Shown here piece after piece: positions 4,927-56,879 of a DNA stretch of 64,000 nucleotides. The stretch comes from Gemmatimonadota bacterium (lineage in GTDB: Bacteria; Gemmatimonadota; Gemmatimonadetes; Longimicrobiales; Gaopeijiaceae). The position numbers were made by a program, and so were the translations under genes. The notes beneath the pieces are model-generated. The model did not search any database and had not been told where the DNA came from. It saw only the letters and a list, made by a program, of their open reading frames with translations. The stretch is from positions 80,829-144,828 of the forward strand of contig JAPPNN010000004.1 of NCBI GenBank assembly GCA_028873815.1, in the 5' to 3' direction. How positions within the stretch are numbered: position 1 is the stretch's first letter; the number at the start of each line of letters is the position of its first letter.

Positions 4927-6375
4927 TCACAATCCGGAGCCGTCCACACCCAAGCGCGGAAGCCGCTTTCGTCCCAGCCCGAGGCCCACAAGGGGAACGG
5001 CGATCCACAGCCCCAGTGCGGCCAGCGACTGGGGACGATCGGTCAGAGCCCGGCCGAGCGTCGGCGGATTTGGCCGGAATACGGGGAACCGTGTCCATTC
5101 CTGCCGTGCAATGCGCTGGGCGCGGTCGTTCTCGTACTTGATCTCGTGGACGTGGAGGTCGTTGAGGCGCTGGATGATGTCATAGCGGTGGGCCTCGGCC
5201 TGCGCGCGGAAGGCCTCTACAGCTTCCGGCCCGGTCCCCGCCGCAGCCATCGACAGGTCCCGGGCCGCCAGGTAGGGAGAGAGCAGCCCGAGCCACGCGA
5301 TTATCCCGTCCTGTCGGCGATGAGCGGCGAGCAGTGCCTGCTGGTGCTCCTCCTGGATCCGGCTGGTGATCTCCTCTCCCTCGCGGCTGACGACCCCTCC
5401 CCAGTTGATCGGCAACTCCTCCACGGATGCCACCTCGTAGCGCGCCAGGTACTCGTCGCGCAGCGCGCTGAAGAAGGGATCGTCCGGGTTGTGGCTGTCC
5501 CCCACTCCCCTCTGCGCTTCCTCGACCTGGGCGGTGAACTGCGCACGCGACGGGATGGGATGAAGTGTGGCCGCGAGGGAGGCACCGAGGCGCGGAGCGG
5601 CAACGCACAGCGCGACCCATATTGCAACGAGCTGGGCCAGAGCGGCTCGGGAAGAGCTTCTGCGTGACGAAACCCAGACGGTCAGCAGCACCCATCCTGC
5701 GAGATACGCCGCATAGCCGGCCGCGAGCGCCAGCAACCGTGTGGCCGAGGTTGGGGCCTCACCTCCGACAGCGGCGAATGCGGCCGTGACCAAGCCGATC
5801 GGAAGGGCTGCCGCCAAGGCAACTGCCCCGACGCTCAGCACCTTCCCTCCCATGATCTGCCCCGGCGTCGCCCCCTGGGCCAGGAGCAGCCGAAGCGTCC
5901 CCCGTTCCCTCTCACCGCCCACCGATGCGAAACCCGCGGCCACCACGAACAACGGCAAGAGCATCCCCAGCACGGTGGCGGGCGTGAGACGCCCGAAACG
6001 CAGCATGCCGGTCGAATGGCGCGCGTCGCTGAAGCTGGCGGCGTTCTGTCGGTGCCCCTCCAGGAAGAGCGACGTCCCCGCGTAGGCACCGACTCCCGGA
6101 TCGAAGAACGCCAGTGGTGCCTCCTCCCGGAAGACGAGGAAGCCGTAGTGGATCACGCGGTGCGGATGACGTTCCGGCTGCTCAGCCCACTGGCGTTCGA
6201 CCAGCGTCTGGTAGCGTGCACGCTGTTCCGCCTCGCTCGCGGCGTGATGCCGGGCTCCGAGGACGGAGACGACCCCCATGGAGACGACGAGCGCCAGCAG
6301 GAACACGACGTAGCGATCCTCGCGCATAGCACCGATCTGCCGCCGTGCAACGAGCAGCGTGTTGCGGAGACCCAC
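4927..6375 (-). CDS. ABC-2 / DUF3526-type transporter permease (paralogue C)
   Basis: GGERERGTLRLLLAQG motif. The N-terminus VGLRNTLLVARRQIGAM... aligns with the N-termini of paralogues A and B. GTG start lies 1 nt after the upstream stop. Confidence 0.7.
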   Translation of the reverse strand: MGLRNTLLVARRQIGAMREDRYVVFLLALVVSMGVVSVLGARHHAASEAEQRARYQTLVERQWAEQPERHPHRVIHYGFLVFREEAPLAFFDPGVGAYAGTSLFLEGHRQNAASFSDARHSTGMLRFGRLTPATVLGMLLPLFVVAAGFASVGGERERGTLRLLLAQGATPGQIMGGKVLSVGAVALAAALPIGLVTAAFAAVGGEAPTSATRLLALAAGYAAYLAGWVLLTVWVSSRRSSSRAALAQLVAIWVALCVAAPRLGASLAATLHPIPSRAQFTAQVEEAQRGVGDSHNPDDPFFSALRDEYLARYEVASVEELPINWGGVVSREGEEITSRIQEEHQQALLAAHRRQDGIIAWLGLLSPYLAARDLSMAAAGTGPEAVEAFRAQAEAHRYDIIQRLNDLHVHEIKYENDRAQRIARQEWTRFPVFRPNPPTLGRALTDRPQSLAALGLWIAVPLVGLGLGRKRLPRLGVDGSGL

Positions 6376-6376
6376 C

Positions 6377-7807
6377 CTAGCCCGCTCCCCGCACCCGCCT
6401 GAGCCCCACTCCGGCACCGATGCCCACCAGCAGCACAAGCCCGCCCAGAACCGTCAGCGGAACTGCCGCCCGGCGTGCGGCCTCGCCGGGGCGTTCGTCC
6501 GCAAGGCGAAACCTCGGCACGTTGGGAAGCACGCTGGCGCTCATCTGCTCGTCCGCGAGGACTGCGGGCACGAAGAACTCCCGCCATTCCTCCGCAAATG
6601 CCCGTACCTGTGACTGGAAGTGGACGAAGCGCGCGTCCCCCGTCCCGGCAGCGTCAATGAGCACGTCCTGGGCCAGGAGCGCTGGCGACAGGAAGCGGTA
6701 GCGGCGCACCAGGATGATCTGATGGGCGCGCTGGGCATCGTGTTCCGACGTCACTTGCTCCAAACGGCGGTTCACGGCGTCCGTGGCGGCCCAGGCGAGG
6801 GCCCCCAGACCCGGCTCGTCCGCCACCACCCCCTCGGCCATCTCGGGATGGTCCTCCAGGTATCGGGCGAGCAGTTCGCTACGGCGGTTCACGGCGTCGT
6901 TCGAAGCGTCGCGCTGGGCAGTGATCATCTCGATGCGAGACGGCAGCGGATGGAGCACGCCCGCCGCGATGTTGATCGCCGCCGGGAGCACTACCACGAG
7001 CACCAGCCACGCACCCACCAGCACCGTGGCGTTCCAGGCCGAGGACCTCCGCAGGGTGTTGACCCATGCCGCGAGCGCGAACCAGAAGAGCGAGTAGGTG
7101 ACGACGGTGGCACACCACAGAAGAACCCGCCCGGGTGAATCGAGGCCTCCCGTGACCAGAATGCCCAGCAACGACATCGCAAGCACCATCCCCACAACCA
7201 GAAGCGCCCGGAATGCTAGCTTCGCCGTCACGACGCTTCGGGCCGACACGGGCTGCGAAAGCGTCAGCGCCAGCGTTCCCTGCTCGCGTTCCTCCGAGAG
7301 GACGTTGAAGCTCAGGGCCAGAACGAGCAGGGGCAGCAGGTACACCACCACGAAGGCCAGGTCAAAGCGCCCGACCATCAGGTTGAGGGGGTTTTCGACC
7401 TCGCCGTTCTGTTGAAACGACGACTCGTTGGTGTAGATGTTGACGTCGTAGTAGTACGGCAGCAGGTCGCTTTGCCCGACCGCCAGGGCCGTCAGGGAAC
7501 CCGGCTCCAGCACCGCGGTGTGGCTGCCGCCGGGCCCGCCCAGGACCAGCGGTGAGCGCGGGTCAGCAAAGGGCGAGGACGGTTGTCCGCCGTTTGCGAT
7601 GGCGTCGAGTTCCTGCTGTAAGGCGCTGGTGCGCTCGACGTTGCCGCTCTCCACGGCCTCCACGGTGCGCTCCTGAAACCGTAGCCAGACCACGCCGTTT
7701 GCCAGCGCGTAGACGAGGAGGACGGCGAAGAGCCCAAGCACGATCCGAAGCGCCTGATCAGCCATGAGCAGACGCCACTCGTTCCGCAGGACGGTCCGTA
7801 CGGTCAT
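6377..7807 (-). CDS. ABC-2 / DUF3526-type transporter permease (paralogue B)
   Basis: 476 aa. LSEEREQGTLALTLSQP motif and multiple TM segments. ATG lies 1 nt after the upstream stop. Confidence 0.75.
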   Translation of the reverse strand: MTVRTVLRNEWRLLMADQALRIVLGLFAVLLVYALANGVVWLRFQERTVEAVESGNVERTSALQQELDAIANGGQPSSPFADPRSPLVLGGPGGSHTAVLEPGSLTALAVGQSDLLPYYYDVNIYTNESSFQQNGEVENPLNLMVGRFDLAFVVVYLLPLLVLALSFNVLSEEREQGTLALTLSQPVSARSVVTAKLAFRALLVVGMVLAMSLLGILVTGGLDSPGRVLLWCATVVTYSLFWFALAAWVNTLRRSSAWNATVLVGAWLVLVVVLPAAINIAAGVLHPLPSRIEMITAQRDASNDAVNRRSELLARYLEDHPEMAEGVVADEPGLGALAWAATDAVNRRLEQVTSEHDAQRAHQIILVRRYRFLSPALLAQDVLIDAAGTGDARFVHFQSQVRAFAEEWREFFVPAVLADEQMSASVLPNVPRFRLADERPGEAARRAAVPLTVLGGLVLLVGIGAGVGLRRVRGAG

Positions 7808-7808
7808 G

Positions 7809-9221
7809 CTACGTCACCTCCGCGCGCCGTACACGCGCCACTGCGGCCAGGATTGCTCCCGCCAGCCATGCTCCAAGAACCAGGAGTGACAGGACCCGGT
7901 TGCCCAGCACCCAGCCCAGCGGCGGGGCGGCGTACTGCAGCGGAGGCACCGCTTCCCAGAGTTCGGCCCCGGCGGTGTACGTGAAGTCGCCGGTCAGGGA
8001 GTTCTCGGTCATGTCACCGTTCATCTGCCGCATCAAATCGCGGCGGTACGTCTCGGCAGCGTTGGCGAAGTGCCGGTGCTGCTCGACATCCGTACCGGCC
8101 AGTCCCATCGAGAGCGTGCGCACCGCGAGCAGCGGTGCCGCGACCGCCAACGTCTCGTGCACGACGCCCTGGCGCTCGAACGTGTCCCACAACGCGCCGT
8201 AGTTGCGGTCGAAGATCCGATTGCCGAACTCCTCGCTCTCCTGCAGGTAGACGCCCACCGCGTTAATGGGCAGGTCCTCGACCCGTTCCACTCCGTATTC
8301 GGCAAGCAGATGCTCGGTCGAAGCAGCCCGATCCGGACGAGAGATGTCCCCTGTGCCAGTAGCCATCTCGCTTTCCACGGTACGGGCGAACTCGAAGGCG
8401 GAAGGTGTCGGGTGGAGCCATTTCGACAGGTCCACCGCCACCCGGGGCGCCACGAGCCCGTTCACCACCCACACGGCCAGCAGAACGACCAGTGCGGTGC
8501 GCGCCGAGCGGGCCCACGCGGATACGGCCAGTGACAGCGCCAGGAAAGTGGCAAAGTACGCCAGATAGACGCCGGCGAGGGCGGTGCCACGAGCCAGTGG
8601 GGACGCGGCCGGACCAGGACTCGCGACAACCAGCGCCGCCGCTCCCACCAGCGCGGCCGGCACCAGCAGCAACGCCAGCGCGCTCGAGACGCCGAGTGCC
8701 TTGCCCCCTGCGAGTTCGCGCCGACCGATCCCGGTAGCCAGCAGTTGCCGCAGCGTGCCGCGTTCCCGCTCGCCGGCGAGGGTGCCGAAGGTTAGCAGGA
8801 TGATGAGCAGGGGCACGAGGTGCTGGAGCACCTGTGCCGCCGTCAGCGCCCCAATGCGCTGGGCTGCCGTTGCATCCTGGGCCGGACGCAACATGAAGTC
8901 GTTCTGCCGGTGGGCCTCCAACCACACCGAAGTGCCCGTGTACGGGTCCACGCCCTCGTCGACAAAGGACAGCGCCAGACGCGGCTTGAACGCATAAATG
9001 CCGTAGTGCGCCGCCGAGTGGGGGTTCTTCTCACCCTGCGTCTCCCAGTGCTCGCGGGCGGTGGCCTGCGCGGCCGCGTGCTCCTGCTGCGTGTTGCGTG
9101 CCTGAACCCAACCGTGGCCCAGGGAGATCAGCAACAGCGATCCGACGAGGATCGAGCACCAGCGGAACCGGCCGTCCCGCAGCACGTCGGTAAACTCCTT
9201 GTGGACTATATGCCTGATCAT
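7809..9221 (-). CDS. ABC-2 / DUF3526-type transporter permease (paralogue A)
   Basis: 470 aa. LAGERERGTLRQLLATG motif. 9-nt gap after the ATPase gene. Confidence 0.75.
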   Translation of the reverse strand: MIRHIVHKEFTDVLRDGRFRWCSILVGSLLLISLGHGWVQARNTQQEHAAAQATAREHWETQGEKNPHSAAHYGIYAFKPRLALSFVDEGVDPYTGTSVWLEAHRQNDFMLRPAQDATAAQRIGALTAAQVLQHLVPLLIILLTFGTLAGERERGTLRQLLATGIGRRELAGGKALGVSSALALLLVPAALVGAAALVVASPGPAASPLARGTALAGVYLAYFATFLALSLAVSAWARSARTALVVLLAVWVVNGLVAPRVAVDLSKWLHPTPSAFEFARTVESEMATGTGDISRPDRAASTEHLLAEYGVERVEDLPINAVGVYLQESEEFGNRIFDRNYGALWDTFERQGVVHETLAVAAPLLAVRTLSMGLAGTDVEQHRHFANAAETYRRDLMRQMNGDMTENSLTGDFTYTAGAELWEAVPPLQYAAPPLGWVLGNRVLSLLVLGAWLAGAILAAVARVRRAEVT

Positions 9222-9230
9222 CGATTCTCC

Positions 9231-9971
9231 CTAGTCGTGCATGTGTTGCAGATAGATGCGCTCCAGGTCGGCATGGCCGATCTCGTCGGTGCTCAACTCC
9301 GTGACCAGGCGTCCGTATCGCATGATGCCCACACGGGTGCCGGTATCCTTTGCGCGAAACAGATCGTGTGTCGCCATGAGGACCGCGACGCCGCGGTTTC
9401 GGAGCCGCTCGACCAATGCCGAGAACTCGTTCGACGCCTTGGGATCAAGACCGGATGTCGGTTCGTCGAGCAACAGTGCGTCGGCCTCCTTGGCGATTGC
9501 AATCGCGATACCGACCTTCTGGCGCATGCCCTTGGAGTATTCGGACACGCGTCGGTCGACCGCGTCGCGCTCCAGCCCGGCTTCGACCAGGATTTCGGTG
9601 AGTCGTTCCCGGCCGAGCGACCCCTTGCCACCCAATGCGGCGAAGTACTCCAGGTTTTCCAGTCCGCTGAGGTTGCGGTACAGCATCACCTGTTCGGGGA
9701 TGTAGGCGAGCCGCTGCTTCGTCTCGCGGTCGTGGGTGGCTACGTCCAGACCGGAAACGAGGGCCTGGCCACCCGAGGGCGCCACGAATCCGAGGAAGAG
9801 GTTGATGGTGGTCGTCTTACCCGCGCCGTTGGGGCCGAGGAGGCAATAGACCTCTCCCGGCGCTATGGTCAGGTCGAGGGAGTCAAGGGCCCTCGTGTCA
9901 CCGTAGTCCTTGCTGAGTCTGCGGGCCTCTAGAAGGGGCGTGTGCCCGGGCCGCGATTCGGCGGTCTGCAT
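9231..9971 (-). CDS. ABC transporter ATP-binding protein
   Basis: Walker A GPNGAGKTT, signature-like YSKGMRQK and Walker B LLLDEPTSGLD. Start taken at MQTAESRP (9971). Confidence 0.9.
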   Translation of the reverse strand: MQTAESRPGHTPLLEARRLSKDYGDTRALDSLDLTIAPGEVYCLLGPNGAGKTTTINLFLGFVAPSGGQALVSGLDVATHDRETKQRLAYIPEQVMLYRNLSGLENLEYFAALGGKGSLGRERLTEILVEAGLERDAVDRRVSEYSKGMRQKVGIAIAIAKEADALLLDEPTSGLDPKASNEFSALVERLRNRGVAVLMATHDLFRAKDTGTRVGIMRYGRLVTELSTDEIGHADLERIYLQHMHD

Positions 9972-45093: not shown

Positions 45094-46878
45094 TCAGGAG
45101 CGCGCTGTTTCTCCAGAATCGACGGTCTCGCCTGCGACAGGCAGGTTGACCGGCAGGGCGGGCCGAACCTCCGAACTCAGGGCAAGGTGGAAGGCCTCCA
45201 TCGCCTCGAAGATTCCATCCCCGGCATGACGGAATTCGTCGGGAATGGCGCGTTGGCGAGCCATTACACGCTGTACCGCGTCCTGTCTGAACTGCTCGGC
45301 CACCCCCGATGCCGCATTGGGCCCCCACCGGGCTTCATTGAACGACGCCAACTCCGAATCCAGGGACGCTTTGAATTCCCGGAGAACAGTCTGCTGGCGC
45401 GTGAGCTTCTCGCAGTGATAACCCATGGCGGCCAGGCGGATCGCCAGCGGCAACAATCGCGGATGGTCCCTCGAGACTTTCGCGACGTAGCGTGAGAACA
45501 CCGGCAACTGGTCCGGGGTGAGGCGCCGCCGAATCCCCATGATGCTCAGGTAGAGCACGTGCTTGCTCGCTGGCTTGTAGATGTGCGGTACCGGATTGAG
45601 GTTGTCCAGCAGGGTCAGGCAGCGGTCAAAGTAGTTCTCCAGCGTCGAATCGTAGATGGTTCCGACGACCCGGAGGTATCCCTCCACCAGCGTCCTGGGA
45701 TCCATCTGCGGCTTGAAGTTCAGCGCAGTTGCGTCGATTTCGACGGGTTTGTCCAGCAAACGATTCTCGCGCTCCAGCCGTGCCCACAGATTCGTTCCCT
45801 TGAGTGCGGTCAGCAACCCGACCAGCGCGATCGGAATCCCGGCCCCCTGAATGAACTCGATCTGCGCATCGAACGCGTTGTCGTCGTCTTCGTCGAGGCC
45901 CAGGATGAAGCCGCCCAGAACCATCATCCCCTTCTGCTGAATCTTCCGGACGGACGTGAACAGGTAGTTGTCGTCGCGCATGTCGAGATTCTGAGGCTTC
46001 TTCATCTTCTTGAGCGCTTTCGGATTGGGCGTCTCGATACCCACGAAGACAGCGTCGAAACCGGCGTCGATCATGTCGTCCATCAAGTCGTTCATCCGGA
46101 CAAGATTGACGCTCGCTTCGGTGAACAGCGCATAGGGATGGCCACGCTCCTTTTGCCACTCGGCGATCACCGGGAGGAGCCTCGAGACTTCGCGCTTGTT
46201 CCCGATGAAGTTGTCGTCGACCAGGAACAGCGGTCCCCGCCAGCCCAGCTCGTACAGGTGGTCGAACTCGGCCACCATCTGTTCCGGGGATTTCGTTCGC
46301 GACACGCGGCCGTACAGCTTCGTGATGTCGCAGAACTCACAGTCGAAGGGGCATCCCCGCGAGAACTGCAGACACATGGAGTGATACTCGTTCATGTCGA
46401 TGAGGTCGAAGCGCGGAACCGGAGAAAGGGTCACATCCGGTTTTCGCGGCGCACGATAGACAGCTCGCGCGTTTCCGCTCTCCAGGTCGTGAAGGAAGGT
46501 CGCGAACGTCTCCTCGACCTCATCGAGGACGAAATGGTCGATTCCCTCCATCTCTTCGTGAAACGTGGTCGGGTGGGGCCCGCCGGCGACGACCGGAACC
46601 CGCGCGCGGTTGCAGCGCTCAACGACTTGCTCAAGTGAGGGGCGCTGCGGAATCATGGTCGATGTGAATGCCAGATCCGCCCACTCCAGATCGGCGTCTT
46701 CGAGGGGGGTCACGTTGAGATCGACCAGACGCAGGTTATACCGGGACGGGAACATCGCGGCGAGTGTGAGCAGACCCAGTGGAGGGAACGCCGCCTTGAT
46801 ACCCAGCAGATCCAGAGCATAATTGTTGCCCCAGTAAGTGGGAGGATGCTTCGGGTAGAGCAGGAGGGCATTCTTCAT
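45094..46878 (-). CDS. B12-binding-domain radical SAM protein with DUF4070-like C-terminus
   Basis: N-terminal cobalamin-binding-like region (PPLGLLTLAAM...VVAGGPHPT), radical SAM cluster motif CPFDCEFC, and a long C-terminal extension as in class B rSAM / DUF4070 proteins. Confidence 0.9.
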   Translation of the reverse strand: MKNALLLYPKHPPTYWGNNYALDLLGIKAAFPPLGLLTLAAMFPSRYNLRLVDLNVTPLEDADLEWADLAFTSTMIPQRPSLEQVVERCNRARVPVVAGGPHPTTFHEEMEGIDHFVLDEVEETFATFLHDLESGNARAVYRAPRKPDVTLSPVPRFDLIDMNEYHSMCLQFSRGCPFDCEFCDITKLYGRVSRTKSPEQMVAEFDHLYELGWRGPLFLVDDNFIGNKREVSRLLPVIAEWQKERGHPYALFTEASVNLVRMNDLMDDMIDAGFDAVFVGIETPNPKALKKMKKPQNLDMRDDNYLFTSVRKIQQKGMMVLGGFILGLDEDDDNAFDAQIEFIQGAGIPIALVGLLTALKGTNLWARLERENRLLDKPVEIDATALNFKPQMDPRTLVEGYLRVVGTIYDSTLENYFDRCLTLLDNLNPVPHIYKPASKHVLYLSIMGIRRRLTPDQLPVFSRYVAKVSRDHPRLLPLAIRLAAMGYHCEKLTRQQTVLREFKASLDSELASFNEARWGPNAASGVAEQFRQDAVQRVMARQRAIPDEFRHAGDGIFEAMEAFHLALSSEVRPALPVNLPVAGETVDSGETARS

Positions 46879-46885
46879 CGTTCGC

Positions 46886-49408
46886 TCACGACACCGCCGC
46901 TGTGCCGAACCGGCTGGCGACGAACTTGCGGTAGTCGGCGAATGCGGCTTTCACCTTGTCGCGGGTCAGGCCGTAGTCCGCGATATCGTACTTGTGCCGC
47001 GTCTCCAGGCGCCGTTGCTCCTCCTGCTTCCAGAACCAGGCTTTCATCGCCTCAATCGACTCGGCCTCCATCGGCCAGCCGAACCGGCGATAGATGCCGA
47101 CCACAACTGCGATGGGGTCGCTGACCAGATCGTAGAAGCTCACATCGTGCCAGCGGTGTTCCAGTTCGGGGTGTGACCGCCGAAACCGAGTCGCTCGGTC
47201 AAGCATGCGACTCATTGCTCTCAGTTGTTCGCTACCGAGCTCCGTGCGGGGGCGCGGTTCGCTGATATCCGACCGGAAGCGCTCCACCAGACTACACCAG
47301 GACCCCATGAATTCGACGGGTTCGCGATGCGTCTGAATGAAAAGGGCGTCGGGATACGCCTCGAGCAGGGCGCCCAGTTCCATCAGATGGGTTGGCATCT
47401 TGAAGATCCATTGGCCCTGGCTGCCCGGGTGACAGGCCCTTCGCTGGTAGTTGTAGTGCTGCATGGTGCGGCGATGCACGTGGTAGGCCTCGCGGGTGCC
47501 GCTTTCCTCGAGCCAGCGCTCGTACTCGGGCAACCGATATCGAGTCGCGAACACCCATGTCTTGAGCGACAACCTGAGGATCGGGATATCCTCTTCCGGT
47601 TCGTCGAGCCCGGCATGGTGAAGGCCCGCGAGAGTATCTACGATGCTCGCCGCTGCGAATACGTCCGCCGCCTTGATACGGCGGGGATCCCGGGGAGTGC
47701 CGACGACCGCTGCGTAGCCGCCGTCCGGAATGACGGGCTCGACGTATTCGTAGGCCCGCAAGGCCCAGAACCGCCGGTCCCGGGCCAATAGACGGTGCAG
47801 GAAGGTCGTGCCCGTCCTGTTGATGCCCACGATGAACACTGGCTGTTCGATTGGCTGCCGCCCGATCTCCGGCAGCCGCATGCGCTCTCCGGCCAGTTCG
47901 GCGTTGTTGCGCAGTATTCGGCACAGGTCGAACACGCAATGCCCGATGCGCTTTGCCAGCAGGCCGGCTTCGGGAGCGTTGAAGCCCTCGACGAGACGGG
48001 CCAATCCCTCCAGCATCCACTCGGGGTAGGTGGTGTCGAAGGACACGCCGTTGTCCCTGGCGTATCGCCGGGCCTGCTTCAGCACGCTGTCCAGGCTGAC
48101 CCCCAGCTGCGGAATCGCCTGCGGCCACTCTTCCTCACGGTCCCTGACCCAGCGGTTGTAGCGGACATACCTGGTGAGAGGACCCGGCCAGTTGATGTCA
48201 CCACGACAGTCCTCTCGAATGGCCCGGTCGGAGACCGGCAGCGTCTGGACCGTTTCGGAGCCCCGAAACCAATAGGGGGCGAAGTGATCGAACAGGGGCC
48301 AGCTGCGGGCCATCGGAGACGCGTCCCCGTGCGCCTGGCAGGCGCGCTTGAAAACGGCGTAGGGAACCTCCGGATAATTGAGGCCGAACTCCGCGAGCTG
48401 CATGGCCCGGTACGACGGCGCGTTGTTGCAGCAGCTGTAGATAGTGAAGCGCCGATTCACATTCATGGAAATGTCGGTGCACATGCGCGTCAGCGTATCC
48501 GCCGGATCGTCGGTGGCCCGCATGGTGAACCCCTGCGGAATCATTCCGACCTGGACCGCCGCCGCGAAGACAAGCTGTGGAGGGGTGTCCGACTGGGCGT
48601 AACCGGTGGAGGCCATGGTGGTTTGCCCGAAACGGAAGACCGCCGCCGGCAAGCCGACCTGATGCGCGAACAGGACGGCCTGTTCCGCCACAAGCTTGCT
48701 CCAGGCATACCCGAGCAACCCGAGCGGCATCACCCTCTTCATCCGACCCAGGTCCGGCTGCGCATGGTCGCCGATGTGACAGTCGCGGTATTCGCCGGCA
48801 AAGGAGTGCACGTACTCGGGGAACACACCCATGGTCGAGACGTGAAACAGGTGCTTGAGGCGGACACTCAGACACAGCCGGAGGACCTCGCGCACTCCGA
48901 GAGCGTTTACCTGGCGGAGAGACCGGTAGGACGCGATCAGGTTCGGGTTGGCCGCAAGGTGGTAGACAGCGTCGATTTGCCGGCACAGCCGGTCGAAGTC
49001 GTCGTTCGAGAGCCCGAAGCGGGACTGCGAGACATCGCCGGCGTAAACGCGGATTCTCGACGTGAACGCATCGTCCCAGGTCTCCGCGTGTTCCATGTTG
49101 GCGCGCAGTCGCTCGAAGCCGCGTTCCGCCGATTCGGCTCGCACGACGCAATGGACCGTCACTTCGGACTCGTGAGCGAGCAGGTCTCGCACGAGGAAAC
49201 GACCGACGAATCCGGTTGCGCCGGTAACCAGGACATTGCGAAAGTCGGCGGGCGAAACCGCGGGAGCCGGGGTTGCATCGGTTAGCGCGGCGCGAACGGA
49301 TCGGCGCAGAGTGGTGAGATCGCGCTGGCATTCGGGCGGCAGGGTCCCTGTCAGCGGTGGCACCTGGTGCCTTGTTGCAGATGCAGTGGCCATGGCGGAA
49401 TCAGTCAC
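46886..49408 (-). CDS. fusion protein: thioester-reductase-type NAD(P)-binding domain plus sulfotransferase domain
   Basis: N-terminal VLVTGATGFVGRFL...VHCVVRA...YHLAANPN (terminal reductase / NAD_binding_4 pattern). C-terminal PVFIVGINRTGTTFLHRLL (PAPS 5'-phosphosulfate-binding loop of sulfotransferases). The GTG start overlaps the PKS stop by 8 nt; an alternative ATG lies at 49393. Confidence 0.8.
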   Translation of the reverse strand: MTDSAMATASATRHQVPPLTGTLPPECQRDLTTLRRSVRAALTDATPAPAVSPADFRNVLVTGATGFVGRFLVRDLLAHESEVTVHCVVRAESAERGFERLRANMEHAETWDDAFTSRIRVYAGDVSQSRFGLSNDDFDRLCRQIDAVYHLAANPNLIASYRSLRQVNALGVREVLRLCLSVRLKHLFHVSTMGVFPEYVHSFAGEYRDCHIGDHAQPDLGRMKRVMPLGLLGYAWSKLVAEQAVLFAHQVGLPAAVFRFGQTTMASTGYAQSDTPPQLVFAAAVQVGMIPQGFTMRATDDPADTLTRMCTDISMNVNRRFTIYSCCNNAPSYRAMQLAEFGLNYPEVPYAVFKRACQAHGDASPMARSWPLFDHFAPYWFRGSETVQTLPVSDRAIREDCRGDINWPGPLTRYVRYNRWVRDREEEWPQAIPQLGVSLDSVLKQARRYARDNGVSFDTTYPEWMLEGLARLVEGFNAPEAGLLAKRIGHCVFDLCRILRNNAELAGERMRLPEIGRQPIEQPVFIVGINRTGTTFLHRLLARDRRFWALRAYEYVEPVIPDGGYAAVVGTPRDPRRIKAADVFAAASIVDTLAGLHHAGLDEPEEDIPILRLSLKTWVFATRYRLPEYERWLEESGTREAYHVHRRTMQHYNYQRRACHPGSQGQWIFKMPTHLMELGALLEAYPDALFIQTHREPVEFMGSWCSLVERFRSDISEPRPRTELGSEQLRAMSRMLDRATRFRRSHPELEHRWHDVSFYDLVSDPIAVVVGIYRRFGWPMEAESIEAMKAWFWKQEEQRRLETRHKYDIADYGLTRDKVKAAFADYRKFVASRFGTAAVS

Positions 49409-52400
49409 CCGCGACTGAACCGGCGTTCGGCACCGTCGACGAAATCACTCGCCGCGCGGATCCGTCGAAACCGGGAGCCGGGGCGGGTTCACCCTTTGGG
49501 AAGTGGTCCTCGAGTCTGTTCGCAAACGGAGAGCTCCGGCGCCGCGTCCGCTGCCCGAACGGTTCGGCCGCGGCGGCCGAACCGTCATCCTCGGCCACCG
49601 TGACGGCTTCGTGGTCCGAGGCCGCTCCCTCGACGATCGTCTGTGCCAGGGACAGAGCCGTCGCGGTGGTCATGAGTTCCAGGGCGCTGACCTGATGGTT
49701 GTACTGTGTCTGGATAAACGCTCCCAGTTCTGCGACCGAAATCGAAGTGAGCCCGAAGCTCGCCAGGGGCTCGGTCATGTCGCCCTCCTCGTGCCCGCAC
49801 AGTTCGGCTACCTTCGCCGAGATCTGGGCGACCACGCCTTCGATGGTGAGATCGCTTCCCAATTCGACCTCGAATGCCGCCTGATTGTTCACCAGACGAC
49901 CGTTGCGCATGTAGTCGGCGGATTCAACGGACCAGGGCGGATTCGAGAACAGCGCGGTGACGACATGGTCGCGTTCGGCCATGGCGCGCAGGGCGTAGTC
50001 CAGGTTCGCGATCGCGAAGTTGGCGCTGACGGTCGTCATCCCGGCCGCTCTCATCATCCGCATGACATGGAGGCTGCGCGCCGCCATCCCGACCTCGGTC
50101 ACGGGACCCAGGTTGTACGCGAAACCCGGGAGCCCCCGCTGGCGCCGGTACTCGGCCAACCCGTCCAGGAAGCTGCTGGCGCCGCTGTAGTTGATCTGCC
50201 CCATGTTGCCGAATGTCGACGCGATCGACGAGAACAGGACGAAGTAGTCCAGGTCGTACCCCGCGGTGGCTTGGTGCAGGTTCAGGGCGCCCCGGGCCTT
50301 CGGGGCGAACACGCGCGCCAGGGAATCAGGCGATGTGTCGAGGAAGGATCGGTCCTCCAGCGTGCCGGCGAGGTGGAATACACCCTTCAGGGGCTTCCTG
50401 AGCGCCCCGATGCAGCGTTGCACGTCCGCTTCGTCCCGCACGTCACCGGGCACGATGTCGATCTCGTATTCCTGCGGCATCTTGGAGAGCGTGGTGATCT
50501 GGCGGATCCATTCGACGTCGCGGCTGCGGGTGGGATCGCGGTCCATCAGCGTCAGGTGCCGCGCCCCGGCGGCGATCAGGTAAGGCACAAAGCGAAGCCC
50601 GAAACCGCCCAGGCCGCCGGTCACCACATAGGTTGCGTCGGGATCCAGGAAGGGCCGCGTGTCTGCAATGCCGAACCCCCGATCCATCGCGTCCTCCGGG
50701 GCCTGCAAGACCAGCTTGCCCTGGTGCTGGCCCGTGGTCATCAGGCGGAGGGCCTGCGCGTAGTCGCGGTACGGGAAGACCGTTAGCGGGGGCGGCGCGA
50801 CCGCTCCCTCAGCCATCAGGTCCATGCAGGCCTGGGAAAGCACATGCGACAGCACCGGGTCGTCGAGCATCAGCCGGTCCACGTCGATCGCCGCGAAGCG
50901 CAGGTTCTTGCGGAAGACCCGCATGCTGAGCGCGTTGTCGGTGTAGATGTCGACCTTCCCGATCTCGCAGTGCCAGCCGGAGGGGCGCAGCGCCTTGAGG
51001 CAGAGCGCAATGTGATGGCCCGCCAGCGAGTTCAACACGACATCGACACCTTCGCCTCCCGTAGCCTCCATCAGATCGTCGTACCAGCTGTGGCTGTGCG
51101 AATCGAAGGCCCCGCGCACGCCCATCGCCAGCAACTGCTTGCGCTTGCTTTCGTTTCCCGCCGTGGCGTAGATCTCCGCGCCGACGTGCCTGGCCAGCGC
51201 GATCGCGGCCTGTCCGACACCACCCATCGCCGAATGGATGAGTACGCGCTGGCCCTCCTGCAGGCGGGCGAGGTGGATCAGCGAGTAGTAGGCGGTCACG
51301 CAGACGGACAACGCCGACGCGGCCTCCTCCATGCTCAGACGGGGTGGTTTCAGGAAGGCGAGGTGTTCGTTTACCACCACCCGGTTGGCGATACAGCCGC
51401 CCGCCGTGAGCGCCACCTCGTCTCCGACCTTCAGGCGCTTCACCTCGGGGCCGGCGCGCCGCACCACCCCGCTGGCTTCGATGCCGACTTCGCGGCCGAG
51501 CGCCGAGCGCTCGTACGCCATGGCGGGCAAAAGTCCCAGCGTGACCATGACGTCGCGGAAATTCAGGGCCGCCGCCGCGATCTGGACCTCCACATCGGCC
51601 GGACCGAGGGCCGGCGGTTCGCAGGTCGTCATCTGGAGGCCGCTGACCTGCCCGGGGTTGTCCAGGCGAAGGCGGTACGGGGGATCGTCGCCGTCCGGAA
51701 CGAGCGGTGCGCGCTGCCGTACGCTGACGATGCGCGGCACCCACGGACGCCGCTCCCGGATCGCCAATTCGCGCTCCCGCGGGTCGCATCGGACGATCCC
51801 GGCCAGTGCCTCCAGGTCTTCTGCCGCCCCGATGTCCACGAGGCGGAAGTCGATGCGAGTGTCCTCGGCGAGGAGTTCCAGGGCTATACTGCGCACGGCC
51901 CCCCACAGCGCACTTCCACGCGGATCGTCGACGCCGCATATCGCGCCGCGCGTAATCACCGTCAGACGGCACTCGCGAGTCGCACTCTCGAGTCGTAACG
52001 GTGCCAAGGCCTGGAGAAACGCCACAAACTGCCACACGATCCGCTCCCCGGTGGGATCCCCGGGGTCGGTGCCGACAAAGAGATCGATCGCCTCAAGTTC
52101 TGCCGTCCCCGGCCATTCCTCCAGCCGGACAAAGTCGCCGGCTTCGAAGGATTTCCAGGGGATGTGATGCACCATCGGCGAATCGAGGTGCTGGATCCAG
52201 GCCTGGGCCGGGGTGTCCGGTTCGCCGATCACCCAGCGGGGACCCCGAGCCGCAGTGCCTTCGATCGGGTCGGCCCCCGCCACGGCTTCGGCACCGTGCA
52301 CGACCTCCGTCGCATCCTGCAATCCGGCCAGAGTGTCCGGGGCCTGCAGCAGCGTCGTGCGCGAGCCCGCATGCAAAGTCGTCCAGCCGCGGCCCGGTTC

Positions 52401-54740
52401 AATGACATCACCCTCCTTGTGGCATACAACCGCAAGGCCGCCGGCGACCATAAGCCGATGGACGAGCGCCCACTGGTCGGGCCCGAAATCGCCGGCCTCC
52501 CGATGAAGCAGCACAAGTTCAGCTCCTGCCGGCCGCAACAGCCCTTTGGCCAGATCAGGCGGGTGGGCCTGGCTGTCGATCAGGTCAAGCGTCTCGAAGC
52601 GAAGCGCGGCGTCGTGATGGTTGAAGGCGTCGTACAGCGCGCGGGTGGACTCTTCGTCCCCTCCGACGAGCCAGTATTCCGTCTGTGCCTCCGGGCCCGA
52701 CAGGCGCTCAAGACACTGGTTCAGAATGGCCTGGGCGGACTCATGCCGACCCGCGATCTCGATCACGTGGCAGGCGTAGTGTTCGCCCAGGGCGCCCTCC
52801 TCCAGCGCCGCAATCAGCGCGGCGGGATCGACTTCGCCATCCCGGATTGCGTCTCCGACCGGAGGCGTTGGCGGCACGAATTTGGGCTGCCAGCGGATTA
52901 GGTGCTTGCTGTCCGGTACATCGCTCCAGCGGGGATTGCTGTTGAAGGAATGATATTCACCGATGTGTGCGATCAGCTTGCCCGTAGCGCGATCGTAGAA
53001 GCTCAGGCGACCGATATACAATTCGCCAAGCGGCTTGTTGTACTGACCCCGCTCGTCCACGTCGAACCAGTCTCCGGTGTCGACCAGAAAACAGCTGATG
53101 CGCGGCCCCGTCGGCGGACGCAGGAAGGTGATGTCGCACGCCCGCTGCGGCATGGAGAAGAAATCCGGCAGGCGCATCAGGTAGCGCAGAAAGATCTGGA
53201 GCCCCCCGTCGGTCAACGGGGGGTACAGGAGATAGCCTTCCTCCCGGCCGGAAGCCCACAGCTCGTCGTCCACCTCGATATCCAGAAGGAGGTCCGTTGA
53301 ACCGGAATCCATCTCGATCTGCCGGACGCTGCGGAACTCGGGCCCGAACTCGAAGGCATCTCCCACAACCGCTTCGATGTGGTCGTAGAACTCCTCTCCC
53401 GTTGAAAGGGGCCGGGGATCGAAGTCGGAGGCCAGGACATCGTCGAGCGTAGGGAGGGTGTCGATGGCGTAGTCCTTGTCCACCCGGCGGACCCGGCCCC
53501 GGCAGTGCAGGGTGCCTTCATCGTCGTTCTCGAAGGAACGCGTGGAGATGGTGAAGGTGAACTGATCGGGAGCGTTCGGAACCGGGAAGAGGGCCGTCTG
53601 CAGACGAACCGGGGTCCTGCCGACGGGCGTATGCTGCAGGAACTCGATCTCGTCGATGTGGACCGGATCGCCGGCGAACGCCTGCAGGAGCAACTCGATA
53701 TAGCCGGCGGCGGGGATGATCGGCGCCCGATGGACCCGGTGGTCGGTCATCCAGGGAAAATCTCTTTCGGATAGCCGCGACTCGAAGAGAATGTGGTCGC
53801 AGGCGACCCGGTGGCCGACGAGCGGGCCGTGCGAGTACTCGCCGCGCTGGACAAACATCTCGTCGTCGACCAGATCGTCGTGGGTCGTGGTCTGCTCCTG
53901 CGGGTGGCCGGGAAGGAGATGAGCGATCGGTTTCGGCTGCGGGTACTGCGATGCAAAGTCGAGCTCGACGCCGGTGCGGTACAACGCCCCCAGCGCCTCC
54001 TGGAAGCCGAGGCACACATCCTCGTCCTTCATGAGCGTGGGAATACACGCCGGGACGGTGGCGCCGCCTTCCAGGCACTGCCGGATCAGAGGTTGCAGAG
54101 CTCCGTGCGGTGCGATTTCCAGGACGATGTCGGGTCGATGGTCCCGTTTCACCGTGTCCATCGCGGCTGCAAAGCGGACCGGTTCGCGAATGTTCGACCA
54201 CCAGTATGCGGCGTCCAGACGCTGCGTTGCGCTGCCGGTCACGGAGGACACCATGGGGACATCGACGTCGAAGGCGCAGTCGTCCAGGAACGACAGCGAA
54301 GCCATGACATCGTCGTGCAACGGATCCATCGCCGTCGAGTGGAATGCGATGTTGCCGGGAATCAGCCGATTCTGCAGGTCTCGGCGGTCCAGCTCCGCCA
54401 TGACGGGCCCGAGCGCGCCCCCCTTGCCGCAGATGACGGTATTGGCCGGCGAGTTCTCGCAGGCGATTTCAACCTGGGCGGGTCTGTGGTTCCCGGAACG
54501 GAACGAGACACTCAGCTCGTCCAGCAAGTCCTGGACACCGGCTCTGTCCAGCCCGATCGCCAGCATCCGACCGGAGCCGGCCACCCGCTGCTGCAGCGTG
54601 GCGCGGTGGTAGACCAGATGCGTGGCCTCCGCGAGGGACAGGGCCCCGCAGGCGTACGCGGCGGCTACTTCGCCGAGCTGTGTCCAACAACGCAGTCCGG
54701 CTGGACGCCCCAGGTCGAGAGCAGTTCCACGAGGGCGCAT
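49401..54740 (-). CDS. type I polyketide synthase, downstream portion: rest of AT, DH, degenerate MT-like / structural region, ER, KR, ACP
   Basis: LGEVAAAYACGALSL (second half of the AT GHSLGE motif). IAFHS. DH motif DHRVHRAPIIPAAGYIE. MT-like relic VIEIAGRHE. ER motif HSAMGGVGQAA. KR motifs YVVTGGLGGFG and NYSGAS. ACP motif FGLTSISVAEL. The first ~17 codons of the listed ORF precede the true join with the KS ORF. Confidence 0.9.
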   Translation of the reverse strand: MRPRGTALDLGRPAGLRCWTQLGEVAAAYACGALSLAEATHLVYHRATLQQRVAGSGRMLAIGLDRAGVQDLLDELSVSFRSGNHRPAQVEIACENSPANTVICGKGGALGPVMAELDRRDLQNRLIPGNIAFHSTAMDPLHDDVMASLSFLDDCAFDVDVPMVSSVTGSATQRLDAAYWWSNIREPVRFAAAMDTVKRDHRPDIVLEIAPHGALQPLIRQCLEGGATVPACIPTLMKDEDVCLGFQEALGALYRTGVELDFASQYPQPKPIAHLLPGHPQEQTTTHDDLVDDEMFVQRGEYSHGPLVGHRVACDHILFESRLSERDFPWMTDHRVHRAPIIPAAGYIELLLQAFAGDPVHIDEIEFLQHTPVGRTPVRLQTALFPVPNAPDQFTFTISTRSFENDDEGTLHCRGRVRRVDKDYAIDTLPTLDDVLASDFDPRPLSTGEEFYDHIEAVVGDAFEFGPEFRSVRQIEMDSGSTDLLLDIEVDDELWASGREEGYLLYPPLTDGGLQIFLRYLMRLPDFFSMPQRACDITFLRPPTGPRISCFLVDTGDWFDVDERGQYNKPLGELYIGRLSFYDRATGKLIAHIGEYHSFNSNPRWSDVPDSKHLIRWQPKFVPPTPPVGDAIRDGEVDPAALIAALEEGALGEHYACHVIEIAGRHESAQAILNQCLERLSGPEAQTEYWLVGGDEESTRALYDAFNHHDAALRFETLDLIDSQAHPPDLAKGLLRPAGAELVLLHREAGDFGPDQWALVHRLMVAGGLAVVCHKEGDVIEPGRGWTTLHAGSRTTLLQAPDTLAGLQDATEVVHGAEAVAGADPIEGTAARGPRWVIGEPDTPAQAWIQHLDSPMVHHIPWKSFEAGDFVRLEEWPGTAELEAIDLFVGTDPGDPTGERIVWQFVAFLQALAPLRLESATRECRLTVITRGAICGVDDPRGSALWGAVRSIALELLAEDTRIDFRLVDIGAAEDLEALAGIVRCDPRERELAIRERRPWVPRIVSVRQRAPLVPDGDDPPYRLRLDNPGQVSGLQMTTCEPPALGPADVEVQIAAAALNFRDVMVTLGLLPAMAYERSALGREVGIEASGVVRRAGPEVKRLKVGDEVALTAGGCIANRVVVNEHLAFLKPPRLSMEEAASALSVCVTAYYSLIHLARLQEGQRVLIHSAMGGVGQAAIALARHVGAEIYATAGNESKRKQLLAMGVRGAFDSHSHSWYDDLMEATGGEGVDVVLNSLAGHHIALCLKALRPSGWHCEIGKVDIYTDNALSMRVFRKNLRFAAIDVDRLMLDDPVLSHVLSQACMDLMAEGAVAPPPLTVFPYRDYAQALRLMTTGQHQGKLVLQAPEDAMDRGFGIADTRPFLDPDATYVVTGGLGGFGLRFVPYLIAAGARHLTLMDRDPTRSRDVEWIRQITTLSKMPQEYEIDIVPGDVRDEADVQRCIGALRKPLKGVFHLAGTLEDRSFLDTSPDSLARVFAPKARGALNLHQATAGYDLDYFVLFSSIASTFGNMGQINYSGASSFLDGLAEYRRQRGLPGFAYNLGPVTEVGMAARSLHVMRMMRAAGMTTVSANFAIANLDYALRAMAERDHVVTALFSNPPWSVESADYMRNGRLVNNQAAFEVELGSDLTIEGVVAQISAKVAELCGHEEGDMTEPLASFGLTSISVAELGAFIQTQYNHQVSALELMTTATALSLAQTIVEGAASDHEAVTVAEDDGSAAAAEPFGQRTRRRSSPFANRLEDHFPKGEPAPAPGFDGSARRVISSTVPNAGSVAGD

Positions 54741-56557
54741 TGAATCATGAAGATCGCGGGCTGCGCCAGCTGGACCTCGTTCAATTCCTCCTGGCTCGCG
54801 TTGAAGCAGGCGTCGCGCAGGGACACTTCGCAGTGCTCACGCCACTCCTCCTCGACGGCATCGACCACGCGCCGGAAGACGGGGTCCGCGTCGTACAGCG
54901 CTTGTCCGCAACCCGCCCACTGCGTGCCCTGTCCGGAGAACACCATGGCCACGCGGGGCTCACCTTCTTCCACGGTGGAGACGGGTTCCGGGTCGTCCAC
55001 AAACGCGTCCAGTGCCTTGGCGAGCCGGCCCCGGTCTCGCACGGCGAACGCGGCACGCGCCGCAAAATGACTGCGTCGTCGGCCGAGATTGCCCGCCAGG
55101 GTGTAGAGGTCGTTTTTCCGCTCGTCGAGAACGGTCCGCAGGCTCCGTGCGCTCTCAACCAGAGCGTTCGTCGTACGTGCGGACAGCGGAACCATGTATC
55201 CGGCGTCGGGGGCCAGGGGCTCCGACCACACCCTTGCTTGCGCTGGCCGATACTCCCTCACCACGCAGTGCCCATTGGCGCCGCCGAACCCGAAGGAGTT
55301 GATCCCGACTACGACCGGACGGTCTGGGAAGGGTTCGCAGGCGGTCTGCACCTGCATCGGGCAGCTGTCGAAGTCGATCTCGAGGTTAGGAGCCAGGAAA
55401 TTCCTGGAAATGGGCGCAAAAGCTCGTTGCCGCATCATGAGAACGACTTTCAGCAGAGCGGCGCTGAACGCCGCTGCTTCGAGGTGCCCCACATTGCTCT
55501 TCACGCTGGCCACGCGCAGCGGGACCTCGCGTTCGACGCCCCCGAACGCCTCGGCTATCGCATTGCCCTCGATGCGGTCTCCTACGACGGTGCCGGTCGC
55601 ATGCGCCTCGATATAGTCGAAGTCCCCCGGCTCCAGTCCCGCCCGAGCGCAGGCCGCGCGCATCAGTTCGACCTGCGAATGACGGGTCGGCGCGGTGATG
55701 TAGCGCCCCTGCGCCATTCCCGCGGCGTCGTCGGCGGTACCGGCCGTGTTGACCGCGGTGGCCTCGATAACCGCGAAGATGTGGTCGCCGTCCCTCTCGG
55801 CCGCTTCCAGTGGCTTGATCGCGAAAACGAAAGCCCCTTCCGCCCGCATGTATCCGTTGGCGTCGGCATCGAATGAATGACAACGGCCGTCCGGACTGAT
55901 CACACCGAGTGCATTGAACGAGGCGCTGCAGCGTGCCGACCCCAGATAGGTCGCGGCCCCCACAAGAGCCCGGTCACAGTCGCCTTGCCGTAGCGAGTTC
56001 ATGGCCGTGTGCAGCGCGGTCAGGGACGCCGAGCAGGCCGTGGAGCACGCGATCGACGGCCCCATGAGGTTGAGGTGGTAGGAGATGCGGTTCGCCAGCA
56101 TCGAGGCGTCGATGCTCAGAATGGAGAATTCGTTGGTGCCGTAAAGGGCCCGCCAATTGGCAGTCGACGCGACCTGCGCCCCGATGAAGACGCCCGTTGG
56201 GCTGTTGCGTAGCGAGTTCAGATCCCAGCCGGCGTGTTCGCAGCTTTCCCATGAGCAGCCCAGCAACATCCGGATCTGCGGATCCATGTAGGCCATCTCA
56301 TTGCGCGAGACCCCGAACAGGCTGCCGTCCATCCGCTGCTCGCCCTCGTCCCGGATCAGCCCTTCGTACGCGCTGCCGAAGCGACCGGGTCCGGAGAAGT
56401 CGCCGATCGGCTGGTAGCCTCGACCGTACCGGTCGGTGACCGGCTCCCGGACGACCTCGCGTCGGCTGAGAAGGCGCCAGAAGTCGCTGTCGGTACGAAT
56501 CCCGCCGGGCATTCGGTAGGAGTACCCGACGATAGCAGCGGGACCAGGGGGGCTCAT
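54665..56557 (-). CDS. type I polyketide synthase, upstream portion: KS plus the N-terminal half of AT, ending at GHS
   Basis: KS active-site motifs STACSASL, EAHATGT and KSNVGHLEAAA. AT start VAMVFSGQGTQWAGCG. The ORF stops 3 codons after ...CVVGHS, in the middle of the AT nucleophile motif. Confidence 0.9.
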   Translation of the reverse strand: MSPPGPAAIVGYSYRMPGGIRTDSDFWRLLSRREVVREPVTDRYGRGYQPIGDFSGPGRFGSAYEGLIRDEGEQRMDGSLFGVSRNEMAYMDPQIRMLLGCSWESCEHAGWDLNSLRNSPTGVFIGAQVASTANWRALYGTNEFSILSIDASMLANRISYHLNLMGPSIACSTACSASLTALHTAMNSLRQGDCDRALVGAATYLGSARCSASFNALGVISPDGRCHSFDADANGYMRAEGAFVFAIKPLEAAERDGDHIFAVIEATAVNTAGTADDAAGMAQGRYITAPTRHSQVELMRAACARAGLEPGDFDYIEAHATGTVVGDRIEGNAIAEAFGGVEREVPLRVASVKSNVGHLEAAAFSAALLKVVLMMRQRAFAPISRNFLAPNLEIDFDSCPMQVQTACEPFPDRPVVVGINSFGFGGANGHCVVREYRPAQARVWSEPLAPDAGYMVPLSARTTNALVESARSLRTVLDERKNDLYTLAGNLGRRRSHFAARAAFAVRDRGRLAKALDAFVDDPEPVSTVEEGEPRVAMVFSGQGTQWAGCGQALYDADPVFRRVVDAVEEEWREHCEVSLRDACFNASQEELNEVQLAQPAIFMIQCALVELLSTWGVQPDCVVGHSSAK

Positions 56558-56597: not shown

Positions 56598-56879
56598 CTA
56601 TGAAGCGTCGACTACTCCCTGAACCGCCTGGCCGGCGGTGTCGAACATCATCTGGAGCCACTTCTTGCGCCGCGCGCGGAAGTCCTTGACCAGATCCCAC
56701 AGATCGTCACGGATCTGTTCGGTCGCTGCTTCCCGTAGCTCATCGGACAGGGTGGTGTTGTTCTCGAACTCGTACTTTGCGATCGCGAAGTCGGCGACGT
56801 CGAGGATGTTCTCACCGACGATCTGCAGATCGACGGCTTTTTTCAGTGTGATGGGTCTGTCGAAGCTGCGGTTGTCCAT
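56598..56879 (-). CDS. small acidic hypothetical protein (93 aa), first gene of the PKS operon
   Basis: Clean ATG-to-TAG ORF with GC3 bias. 40 nt upstream of the KS start on the same strand. No signal peptide and no recognisable motif. Confidence 0.55.
   Translation of the reverse strand: MDNRSFDRPITLKKAVDLQIVGENILDVADFAIAKYEFENNTTLSDELREAATEQIRDDLWDLVKDFRARRKKWLQMMFDTAGQAVQGVVDAS

Follow-up and report, generated by a model that had tools for sequence, protein, structure and literature searches.

The window considered here is a stretch of 64,000 nucleotides (GenBank assembly GCA_028873815.1, contig JAPPNN010000004.1, positions 80,829 to 144,828 of the forward strand). The assembly is a metagenome-assembled genome (MAG) of 4.29 Mb, in 87 contigs and 86% complete, and the host of the genes described below is a member of the Gemmatimonadota, of the Palauibacter/Longimicrobiales type. 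On the minus strand of the window, at positions 46886..49408, lies an open reading frame (ORF) of 840 amino acids (aa), in which a thioester reductase (R) domain is fused to a sulfotransferase (ST) domain. It is preceded by a polyketide synthase (PKS) gene and followed by the gene for a B12-binding radical S-adenosylmethionine (SAM) protein, and it is almost certainly swfB of the swf operon ("sponge symbiont widespread FAS", i.e., fatty acid synthase). Its extent and domains were determined from the ORF, profile searches, an alignment of homologues and a structural model. The start codon is GTG, with an alternative in-frame ATG at codon 6.

A preliminary description of this DNA had proposed a single ORF of 840 aa with two domains, an N-terminal domain of the terminal-reductase type and a C-terminal sulfotransferase with a loop for 3'-phosphoadenosine-5'-phosphosulfate (PAPS); these assignments are confirmed. 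In Pfam searches, residues 61-297 were matched by NAD_binding_4 (E 7e-52) and residues 523-781 by Sulfotransfer_3 (E 1e-36). Of the NCBIfam models, TIGR01746 (thioester-reductase domain) matched residues 58-376 with 206.9 bits (E 5e-61), followed by the R domains of MxcG, aminoadipate-semialdehyde dehydrogenase and carboxylic acid reductase (CAR). Members of the family are named "NAD-dependent epimerase/dehydratase family protein" or "SDR family oxidoreductase" (SDR, short-chain dehydrogenase/reductase) by NCBI, and there is a weak match to Pfam Epimerase (E 1e-14), which would be in line with an ordinary sugar-nucleotide epimerase or dehydratase without any connection to a PKS. The probability of this reading is considered negligible, since all sugar-enzyme models (E 1e-14 and worse) are far surpassed by NAD_binding_4 and TIGR01746, the top structural matches of this half are all R domains of PKSs, non-ribosomal peptide synthetases (NRPSs) or CARs, and both the strict synteny with swfA and the covalent fusions to PKSs, described below, speak against it. 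A sugar epimerase identity of the N-terminal half is thus refuted by profile scores, fold matches, synteny and fusions.

For an assessment of conservation, 30 homologues with 51-91% identity to SwfB of the window were aligned. The R domain (approximately residues 58-400; 48209..49237, minus strand; delimited by TIGR01746 and by sequence and fold matches) begins with VTGATGFVGRF at residues 60-70, which includes the motif TGxTGFxG (62-69); T62, G63, T65, G66, F67, G69, R70, R90, Y234 and K238 are invariant in all homologues. S191 and T192 also belong to this domain, position 192 being occupied by T in 26 homologues and by S in the other four. The ST domain, together with an N-terminal helical extension, occupies approximately residues 440-835 (46904..48091, minus strand; from the Sulfotransfer_3 and the Stf1 and Stf9 matches) and carries GINRTGTTFLHRLL at residues 528-541. 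Within its loop GxNRTGTT (528-535), G528, N530, R531, G533, T534 and T535 are invariant, and so are H538, R539, E606, D607, K670, P672, H674, T693, H694, R695 and S703, which include the motifs K670-x-P-x-H674 and T693-H-R695. Aligned on Stf1, both the 5'-phosphosulfate-binding loop and the 3'-phosphate-binding motif of PAPS sulfotransferases are present; G528-T535, T693-H-R695 and S703 are taken to be the PAPS-binding residues. The set TGxTGFxG, T/S192, Y234 and K238 is that of thioester reductases of the extended SDR type and aligns with VST and YxxSK of the R domain of MxaA. By these motifs, the N-terminal half is assigned to the terminal-reductase-type SDRs and the C-terminal half to the sulfotransferases with intact PAPS-binding motifs. 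Both predicted active sites are intact, with catalytic and cofactor residues kept throughout the family; this includes Y234 and K238 of the R domain and H674 and S703 of the ST.

A model of SwfB was calculated with AlphaFold2 on the basis of an alignment and had a mean predicted local distance difference test value (pLDDT) of 86.5 and a predicted template modelling score (pTM) of 0.85. When compared with solved structures by sequence, the R half matched the R domain of MxaA (4u7w, E 4e-38) and a PKS thioreductase of Streptomyces coelicolor (8v1x, E 6e-37), and the ST half matched Stf1 of Mycobacterium tuberculosis (2zq5, E 6e-40, query residues 511-824) and Stf9 of Mycobacterium avium (2z6v, E 3e-27, query residues 464-827), which were the only solved structures found for this half. 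Target-normalised template modelling scores from Foldseek were 0.78-0.79 for MxaA, 0.82 for 8v1x, 0.84 for Stf1 and 0.79 for Stf9. In the pairwise alignments, VST and YxxSK of SwfB fell on the corresponding motifs of MxaA, and RTGTT, K-x-P-x-H and THR on those of Stf1.

Between the two domains, a linker of about 90 residues had been postulated. This part of the proposal did not stand. In the segment from about residue 377 to 520, mean column identity was 0.64-0.67, compared with 0.71-0.73 in the catalytic domains; the segment is helical in the model, with pLDDT values mostly of 80-97, and contains invariant residues (W380, D400, W407, W420, W428, F457, P462 and others). About 755 of the 840 residues are covered by structural matches, 390 aa by the R domain of MxaA and 365 aa by Stf1. 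A flexible linker is ruled out by the conservation, by the confidently modelled helices and by structural matches which span the segment; according to alignments and model, it is made up of the C-terminal subdomain of R, followed by helices which form the N-terminus of an Stf-type ST. From the high pTM of the whole chain, it seems that R and ST are held in a fixed mutual arrangement, as one rigid and conserved unit.

The gene upstream of swfB encodes a PKS with the order ketosynthase (KS), acyltransferase (AT), dehydratase (DH), enoylreductase (ER), ketoreductase (KR) and a terminal acyl carrier protein (ACP), and a free-standing R-ST protein directly behind an ACP-terminated PKS, as had been described, is indeed present. 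In the window, this gene, swfA, is divided into two overlapping ORFs on the minus strand. The 5' part (54665..56557) encodes the KS and the linker between KS and AT, together with the first third of the AT, as seen from Pfam matches (ketoacyl-synt, Ketoacyl-synt_C, KAsynt_C_assoc and profile positions 3-91 of Acyl_transf_1) and SwfA motifs. The 3' part (49401..54740) encodes the rest of the AT (Acyl_transf_1 profile positions 92-318), DH (PKS_DH_N), ER (ADH_N/ADH_zinc_N), KR, an ACP with the motif FGLTSIS and a tail of about 70 aa. The stop codon of swfA overlaps the GTG of swfB, the junction reading GGTGACTGA. Seven nucleotides past the stop codon of swfB begins swfC (45094..46878, minus strand; 594 aa), with the Pfam domains B12-binding, Radical_SAM and DUF4070 and a CxxxCxxC motif at residue 176; no NCBIfam family was matched by SwfC above threshold, and matches to B12 radical SAM families, including the methylase HpnR, were sub-threshold only.

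The swf operon was defined from sponge bacteria by Della Sala et al. (2013, Environ Microbiol Rep 5:809; PMC3908369). In that work, swfA was described as a PKS of the type KS-AT-DH-ER-KR-ACP with 2349 or 2361 aa, swfB as "R + ST domains" with 839 or 832 aa, and swfC as a B12 radical SAM enzyme of 585 aa, which is missing from fosmid pPSA11D7 (PMC3908369). On fosmid pPS11G3, the order is a hypothetical protein of 92 aa, SwfA (2349 aa), SwfB (839 aa) and SwfC (585 aa), to which the 93-aa ORF, SwfA, SwfB (840 aa) and SwfC (594 aa) of the window correspond in order and size. Signatures of SwfA were given as DPQ(I/V)R instead of DPQQR and HATGT instead of HGTGT in the KS, and as FSGQGTQW, a unique QCALVEL, an unusual GHSSGE and IAFH in the AT (PMC3908369). 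Every one of them occurs in the PKS of the window: DPQIR (residue 92), HATGT (319), FSGQGTQW (540), QCALVEL (606) and GHSS (625) in the first ORF and IAFH at residue 131 of the second, with GHSSGE interrupted by a frameshift. Since gene order, sizes and SwfA signatures agree, the operon is taken to be swf and the R-ST gene to be swfB. Identities between published SwfB proteins were 58-59% (PMC3908369), and SwfB of the window has 52-54% identity to homologues in other phyla. Differences from the published operon are the frameshift in swfA and the lack of a gene for a STAS (anti-anti-sigma) protein before the small ORF of the window; moreover, swf-like clusters have been reported in later surveys from Nitrospirota, Latescibacterota, Acidobacteriota and 'Thalassonella', where their function was still called unknown (PMC9426513, PMC10227082), whereas the host here belongs to the Gemmatimonadota. 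The R-ST architecture has been known since 2013, and the window does not add a new kind of system. The view of the preliminary description that the architecture is unusual has to be abandoned, in view of the publication of SwfB in 2013, the large number of clusters of homologues and the many PKSs which terminate in the same cassette, as described in the following.

In a word-indexed protein search, the clusters (90% identity) with the full-length R-ST fusion numbered at least 564; among the 120 clusters listed, nearly all were of 805-852 aa and contained both domains. In a scan of a genome collection, 25 swfB loci were found in MAGs. Those from Gemmatimonadetes, Longimicrobiales and Candidatus Palauibacter had 62-94% identity to SwfB of the window, and those from Spirochaetia, Alphaproteobacteria (Defluviicoccus, Thalassobaculaceae, Paracoccaceae) and Gammaproteobacteria (Arenicellales) 52-54%; by identity and common flanking genes, the window is placed among the Gemmatimonadota of the Palauibacter type. 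Within the order of the host, the distribution of swfB is patchy: the gene was present in 19 of the 201 genomes searched, with a single carrier family out of three (18 of 67 genomes), and in 10 of 24 genomes of the host's own genus. One genome of the same family (G010) contains two swfB copies 14 kb apart, with identities of 66% and 50%.

Synteny was evaluated by tblastn of the window proteins against 26 loci. In essentially every locus with enough flanking sequence, swfA ends at the start of swfB, and this holds for Gemmatimonadota, Spirochaetia, Alphaproteobacteria and Gammaproteobacteria. The position of swfC is more variable: it follows directly downstream in L001-L003, L005, L006, L011 and L020, precedes swfA in L009, L010 and L030, and in L015 and L017-L019 is located downstream but on the other strand; within 10 kb of swfB, it was not found in L004, L013, L016, L021 and L022. 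In the syntenic Gemmatimonadota loci (L001-L006, L011, L020), the identities of the three Swf proteins to those of the window do not change in parallel; in L002, SwfB has 94% but the C-terminal part of SwfA 79%, and in L005, SwfB has 74% but SwfC 88%. These uncoupled identities suggest recombination or allele exchange inside the swf operon. In the metagenomic swf locus L030 (11550-13989), swfB is followed by genes for another free-standing NAD_binding_4 reductase (355 aa) and for an aldehyde dehydrogenase, which hints that the handling of aldehydes varies between swf clusters.

Fusions of the R-ST unit came to light in an exhaustive scan of 1.84 billion representative proteins. The entire unit was found at the C-terminus of long synthases, with a single continuous match to approximately residues 10-830, and many PKSs of 2,000-6,700 aa end in the same cassette. 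Protein P0180 (3179 aa) has the order KS-AT-DH-ER-KR-R-ST and represents a natural fusion of SwfA and SwfB in a single chain; P0182, P0187 and P0189 resemble it but are partial. Two multimodular PKSs, P0193 (4485 aa) and P0205 (4128 aa), terminate in R-ST, and P0199 (1065 aa) consists of ACP-R-ST. Thus, the rule that R domains are normally placed behind the last carrier protein, which had been stated for PKS and NRPS lines in the preliminary description, applies to the R-ST family as well. The natural PKS-R-ST and ACP-R-ST fusions support an ACP-bound substrate; they are the strongest available evidence on this question and argue that the R domain unloads a chain bound to a carrier protein, which for SwfB would be that of SwfA. 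The fusions also demonstrate that R and ST work as one cassette, of which SwfB is a split version. That SwfB acts in trans on the adjacent PKS, in release and tailoring of its product, as first suggested from the gene arrangement, is well supported by synteny and natural fusions.

SwfB is thus tied genetically and evolutionarily to an ACP-terminated, fully reducing iterative PKS. A mechanism which is considered just probable would begin with the formation of a saturated acyl chain from malonyl units by SwfA on its own ACP. The R domain of SwfB would take the acyl-S-ACP in trans and reduce it with NADPH, by way of the aldehyde, to the primary alcohol; such a release would take four electrons, like that of MxaA, from which the chain is also set free as a primary alcohol. 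The adjoining ST would then transfer sulfate from PAPS to the hydroxyl group of the alcohol, resulting in a long-chain alkyl sulfate, and SwfC, as a class-B (cobalamin) radical SAM enzyme, would probably methylate an unactivated carbon of the chain. Reductive release of the SwfA chain with subsequent sulfation, and possibly methylation by SwfC, was already proposed in 2013 (PMC3908369). In one paper from 2022, the production of methyl-branched fatty acids is ascribed to SwfA, with the 2013 paper as sole citation, which does not show it. A source of PAPS is apparently available: an APS (adenosine-5'-phosphosulfate)-kinase domain (E 1e-68) is encoded at positions 174471-174920 of the same contig (G000:C7), about 30 kb past the end of the window, so that the genome can make PAPS. 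The domain is part of an ORF of 632 aa, by its size probably a CysN/CysC-type fusion, which is the likely PAPS source for SwfB.

Several points weigh against this pathway. The S. coelicolor thioreductase 8v1x, whose pathway stops at the aldehyde, is the second-best structural match of the R half; the score of the R domain with TIGR01746 narrowly misses the cut-off of 213.35; swfC is missing near swfB in several of the loci, and therefore a role of SwfC is not obligatory; and the pathway may be inactive in the window genome owing to the split swfA. Further, two- and four-electron R domains are indistinguishable from sequence (bioRxiv 10.1101/2023.05.23.541938), expression of a whole swf cluster in E. 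coli BAP1 did not yield a new compound (PMC3908369), and no product of a swf cluster was reported in the literature searched, the function being called unknown in 2022-2023. As a whole, the explanation of the finding as swfB of a swf operon with a pathway of reductive release and sulfation is regarded as fairly probable.

Two of these aspects, electron number and relationship to 8v1x, bear on a different outcome, namely that R carries out a two-electron reduction and releases an aldehyde, with ST acting on another hydroxyl group, perhaps mid-chain or a beta-hydroxyl left by skipped DH and ER steps, or with a separate reductase forming the alcohol. Iterative PKSs are able to skip reductive steps (PMC3908369), 8v1x is nearly as close to SwfB as MxaA, and the additional NAD_binding_4 reductase and the aldehyde dehydrogenase behind swfB in L030 would fit such a scheme. 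The rigid and conserved R-ST fusion (pTM 0.85) and the fixed order of R and then ST behind the ACP suggest instead consecutive action on one terminus, and the operon of the window contains no extra reductase according to its Pfam annotation; aldehyde release is therefore considered unlikely, and four-electron release with sulfation of the terminal alcohol is retained.

Activity of the pathway in the organism of the window is called into question by a single missing base in the nucleophile motif of the AT (54672..54677, minus strand), which was recognized by alignment with relatives. The first ORF of swfA ends with VVGHSSAK and a stop codon, and the second carries on with LGEVAAAY, whereas relatives read GHSSGEVAAAY in one frame, with GHSSGE being the published SwfA signature. 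One more base is present at this site in all 14 relatives whose alignment was printed, and when the window is aligned over 11.8 kb with L001, the most similar locus (collinear, with 88.5% identity of nucleotides), this is the sole uncompensated gap in coding sequence which is not a multiple of three. Together with the recurrence of broken swf copies, i.e., one with an insert (L012) and one with a split swfA (L031), this would be compatible with a recent pseudogene: a real deletion of one nucleotide in GHSSGE, by which SwfA would lose the loading of malonate and SwfB would be left without substrate. The rest of the 11.8 kb is intact, however, without further stop codons; the assembly is an incomplete MAG in many contigs, the missing base lies within a short G or C run, which is a typical place for assembly errors, and in the case of the analogous split of POR_0547/0548 a sequencing error was suspected by the 2013 authors (PMC3908369). 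Inactivation of the operon is a possibility to be taken seriously, but it is considered somewhat less likely than not.

One of the disrupted copies deserves a description. In L012 (4771-11431; OZ242312.1, a chromosome-level MAG of the Gemmatimonadota), swfB is cut after the R half (ORF of 371 aa, 5426-6541). The foreign insert of about 3.4 kb carries a gene of the phage integrase family at 8748-9953, and beyond it the ST half continues from residue 356; swfA of this locus changes frame near 4775. In L031, swfA was called as two genes, and the split of POR_0547/0548 noted in 2013 (PMC3908369) likewise counts among the recurrent broken copies.

Directly upstream of swfA in the window, separated from the KS-encoding ORF by 40 nucleotides, is a small acidic ORF of 93 aa (56598..56879, minus strand), whose counterpart in position and size is ORF19/POR_0546 in the table of fosmid genes from 2013 (PMC3908369, Table 1). 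Homologues are located directly upstream of swfA in L001-L004, L011, L020, L023 and L031, the last being from a different lineage (phmmer E 3e-50 to 3e-20, and tblastn); no Pfam or NCBIfam family was matched. This ORF is a conserved companion of the operon and looks like its unnamed fourth member. In L011, L020, L023 and L031, a STAS gene precedes the small ORF.

In sponges of high microbial abundance, only two PKS families are as widespread as to lead all others, and swf is one of them; its interest lies in a possible production of long-chain alkyl sulfates, perhaps with methyl branches, by sponge symbionts, and in the role of such compounds. The window supplies a clean example of swf from the Gemmatimonadota, with R and ST apparently forming one rigid conserved unit. 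If the reading as an off-loading route holds, the alkyl sulfates would be natural anionic surfactants. A wider view, in which R-ST is a general cassette for off-loading by reduction and sulfation, leading to primary alkyl sulfates, spread horizontally in sponge symbionts of many phyla and terminating multimodular PKSs in other settings, is considered quite doubtful. It is also less likely that the alkyl sulfate is an activated alkyl donor for SwfC or other enzymes rather than the end product. Only this idea of an activated donor and the link between stand-alone and fused forms would be new, since the concept of reduction followed by sulfation dates from 2013.

Among characterized systems, the R domain of MxaA (myxalamid PKS-NRPS; 4u7w/4w4t) is the best match in sequence and fold for approximately residues 49-400 of SwfB; TGxxGxxG, VST and the YxxxK triad are common to both. 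It differs by being fused in cis behind a carrier protein and by the lack of an ST, SwfB being a separate polypeptide, and identity amounts to 26-27%. The ST half shares with Stf1 (2zq5; E 1e-40 for this half) and Stf9 (2z6v; E 1e-27), the latter of which sulfates glycopeptidolipids, the RTGTT PAPS loop, K-x-P-x-H and THR; both enzymes are, however, free-standing and have no link to a reductase or PKS.

The ACP-ST-TE off-loading module (TE, thioesterase) of CurM, from curacin A biosynthesis, and of olefin synthases (Ols) is similar in the placement of a sulfotransferase at the chain-terminating end of a type I PKS. Its ST is of another type, in CurM a beta-hydroxyl group is sulfated before hydrolysis by the TE, and the sulfate leaves, whereas the partner of the ST in SwfB is a reductase. 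Sulfation as activation, with sulfate as a leaving group and an alkene, an alkylated molecule or an ether as product, could be envisaged for swf by analogy; it is established for curacin A, widespread alkyl sulfates are not known from sponges (both PMC3908369), and the chemistry of SwfC is not fixed by its NCBIfam matches. Such a leaving-group logic is nevertheless less likely and, in our estimate, highly improbable. The ST of SwfB is of the Stf1/Stf9 type, with no CurM/Ols-type ST matched among solved structures even at E<=10; by Pfam annotation, the operon of the window encodes no TE, as would be expected for ACP-ST-TE, and no other eliminating enzyme; and the ST of CurM acts before release, whereas that of SwfB comes after the releasing domain. 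Sulfation of a reductively released alcohol is therefore preferred.

The only other contiguous R and ST proteins which were named in 2013 are the coccidian type I FAS/PKS proteins (Toxoplasma, and the oocyst-wall PKS1 of Eimeria; PMC3908369), and an ST has been drawn at the end of coccidian PKSs (PMC3760245). They resemble SwfB in the contiguous C-terminal R-ST and differ in that the pair is fused in cis to multimodular synthases, whereas SwfB is a separate protein.

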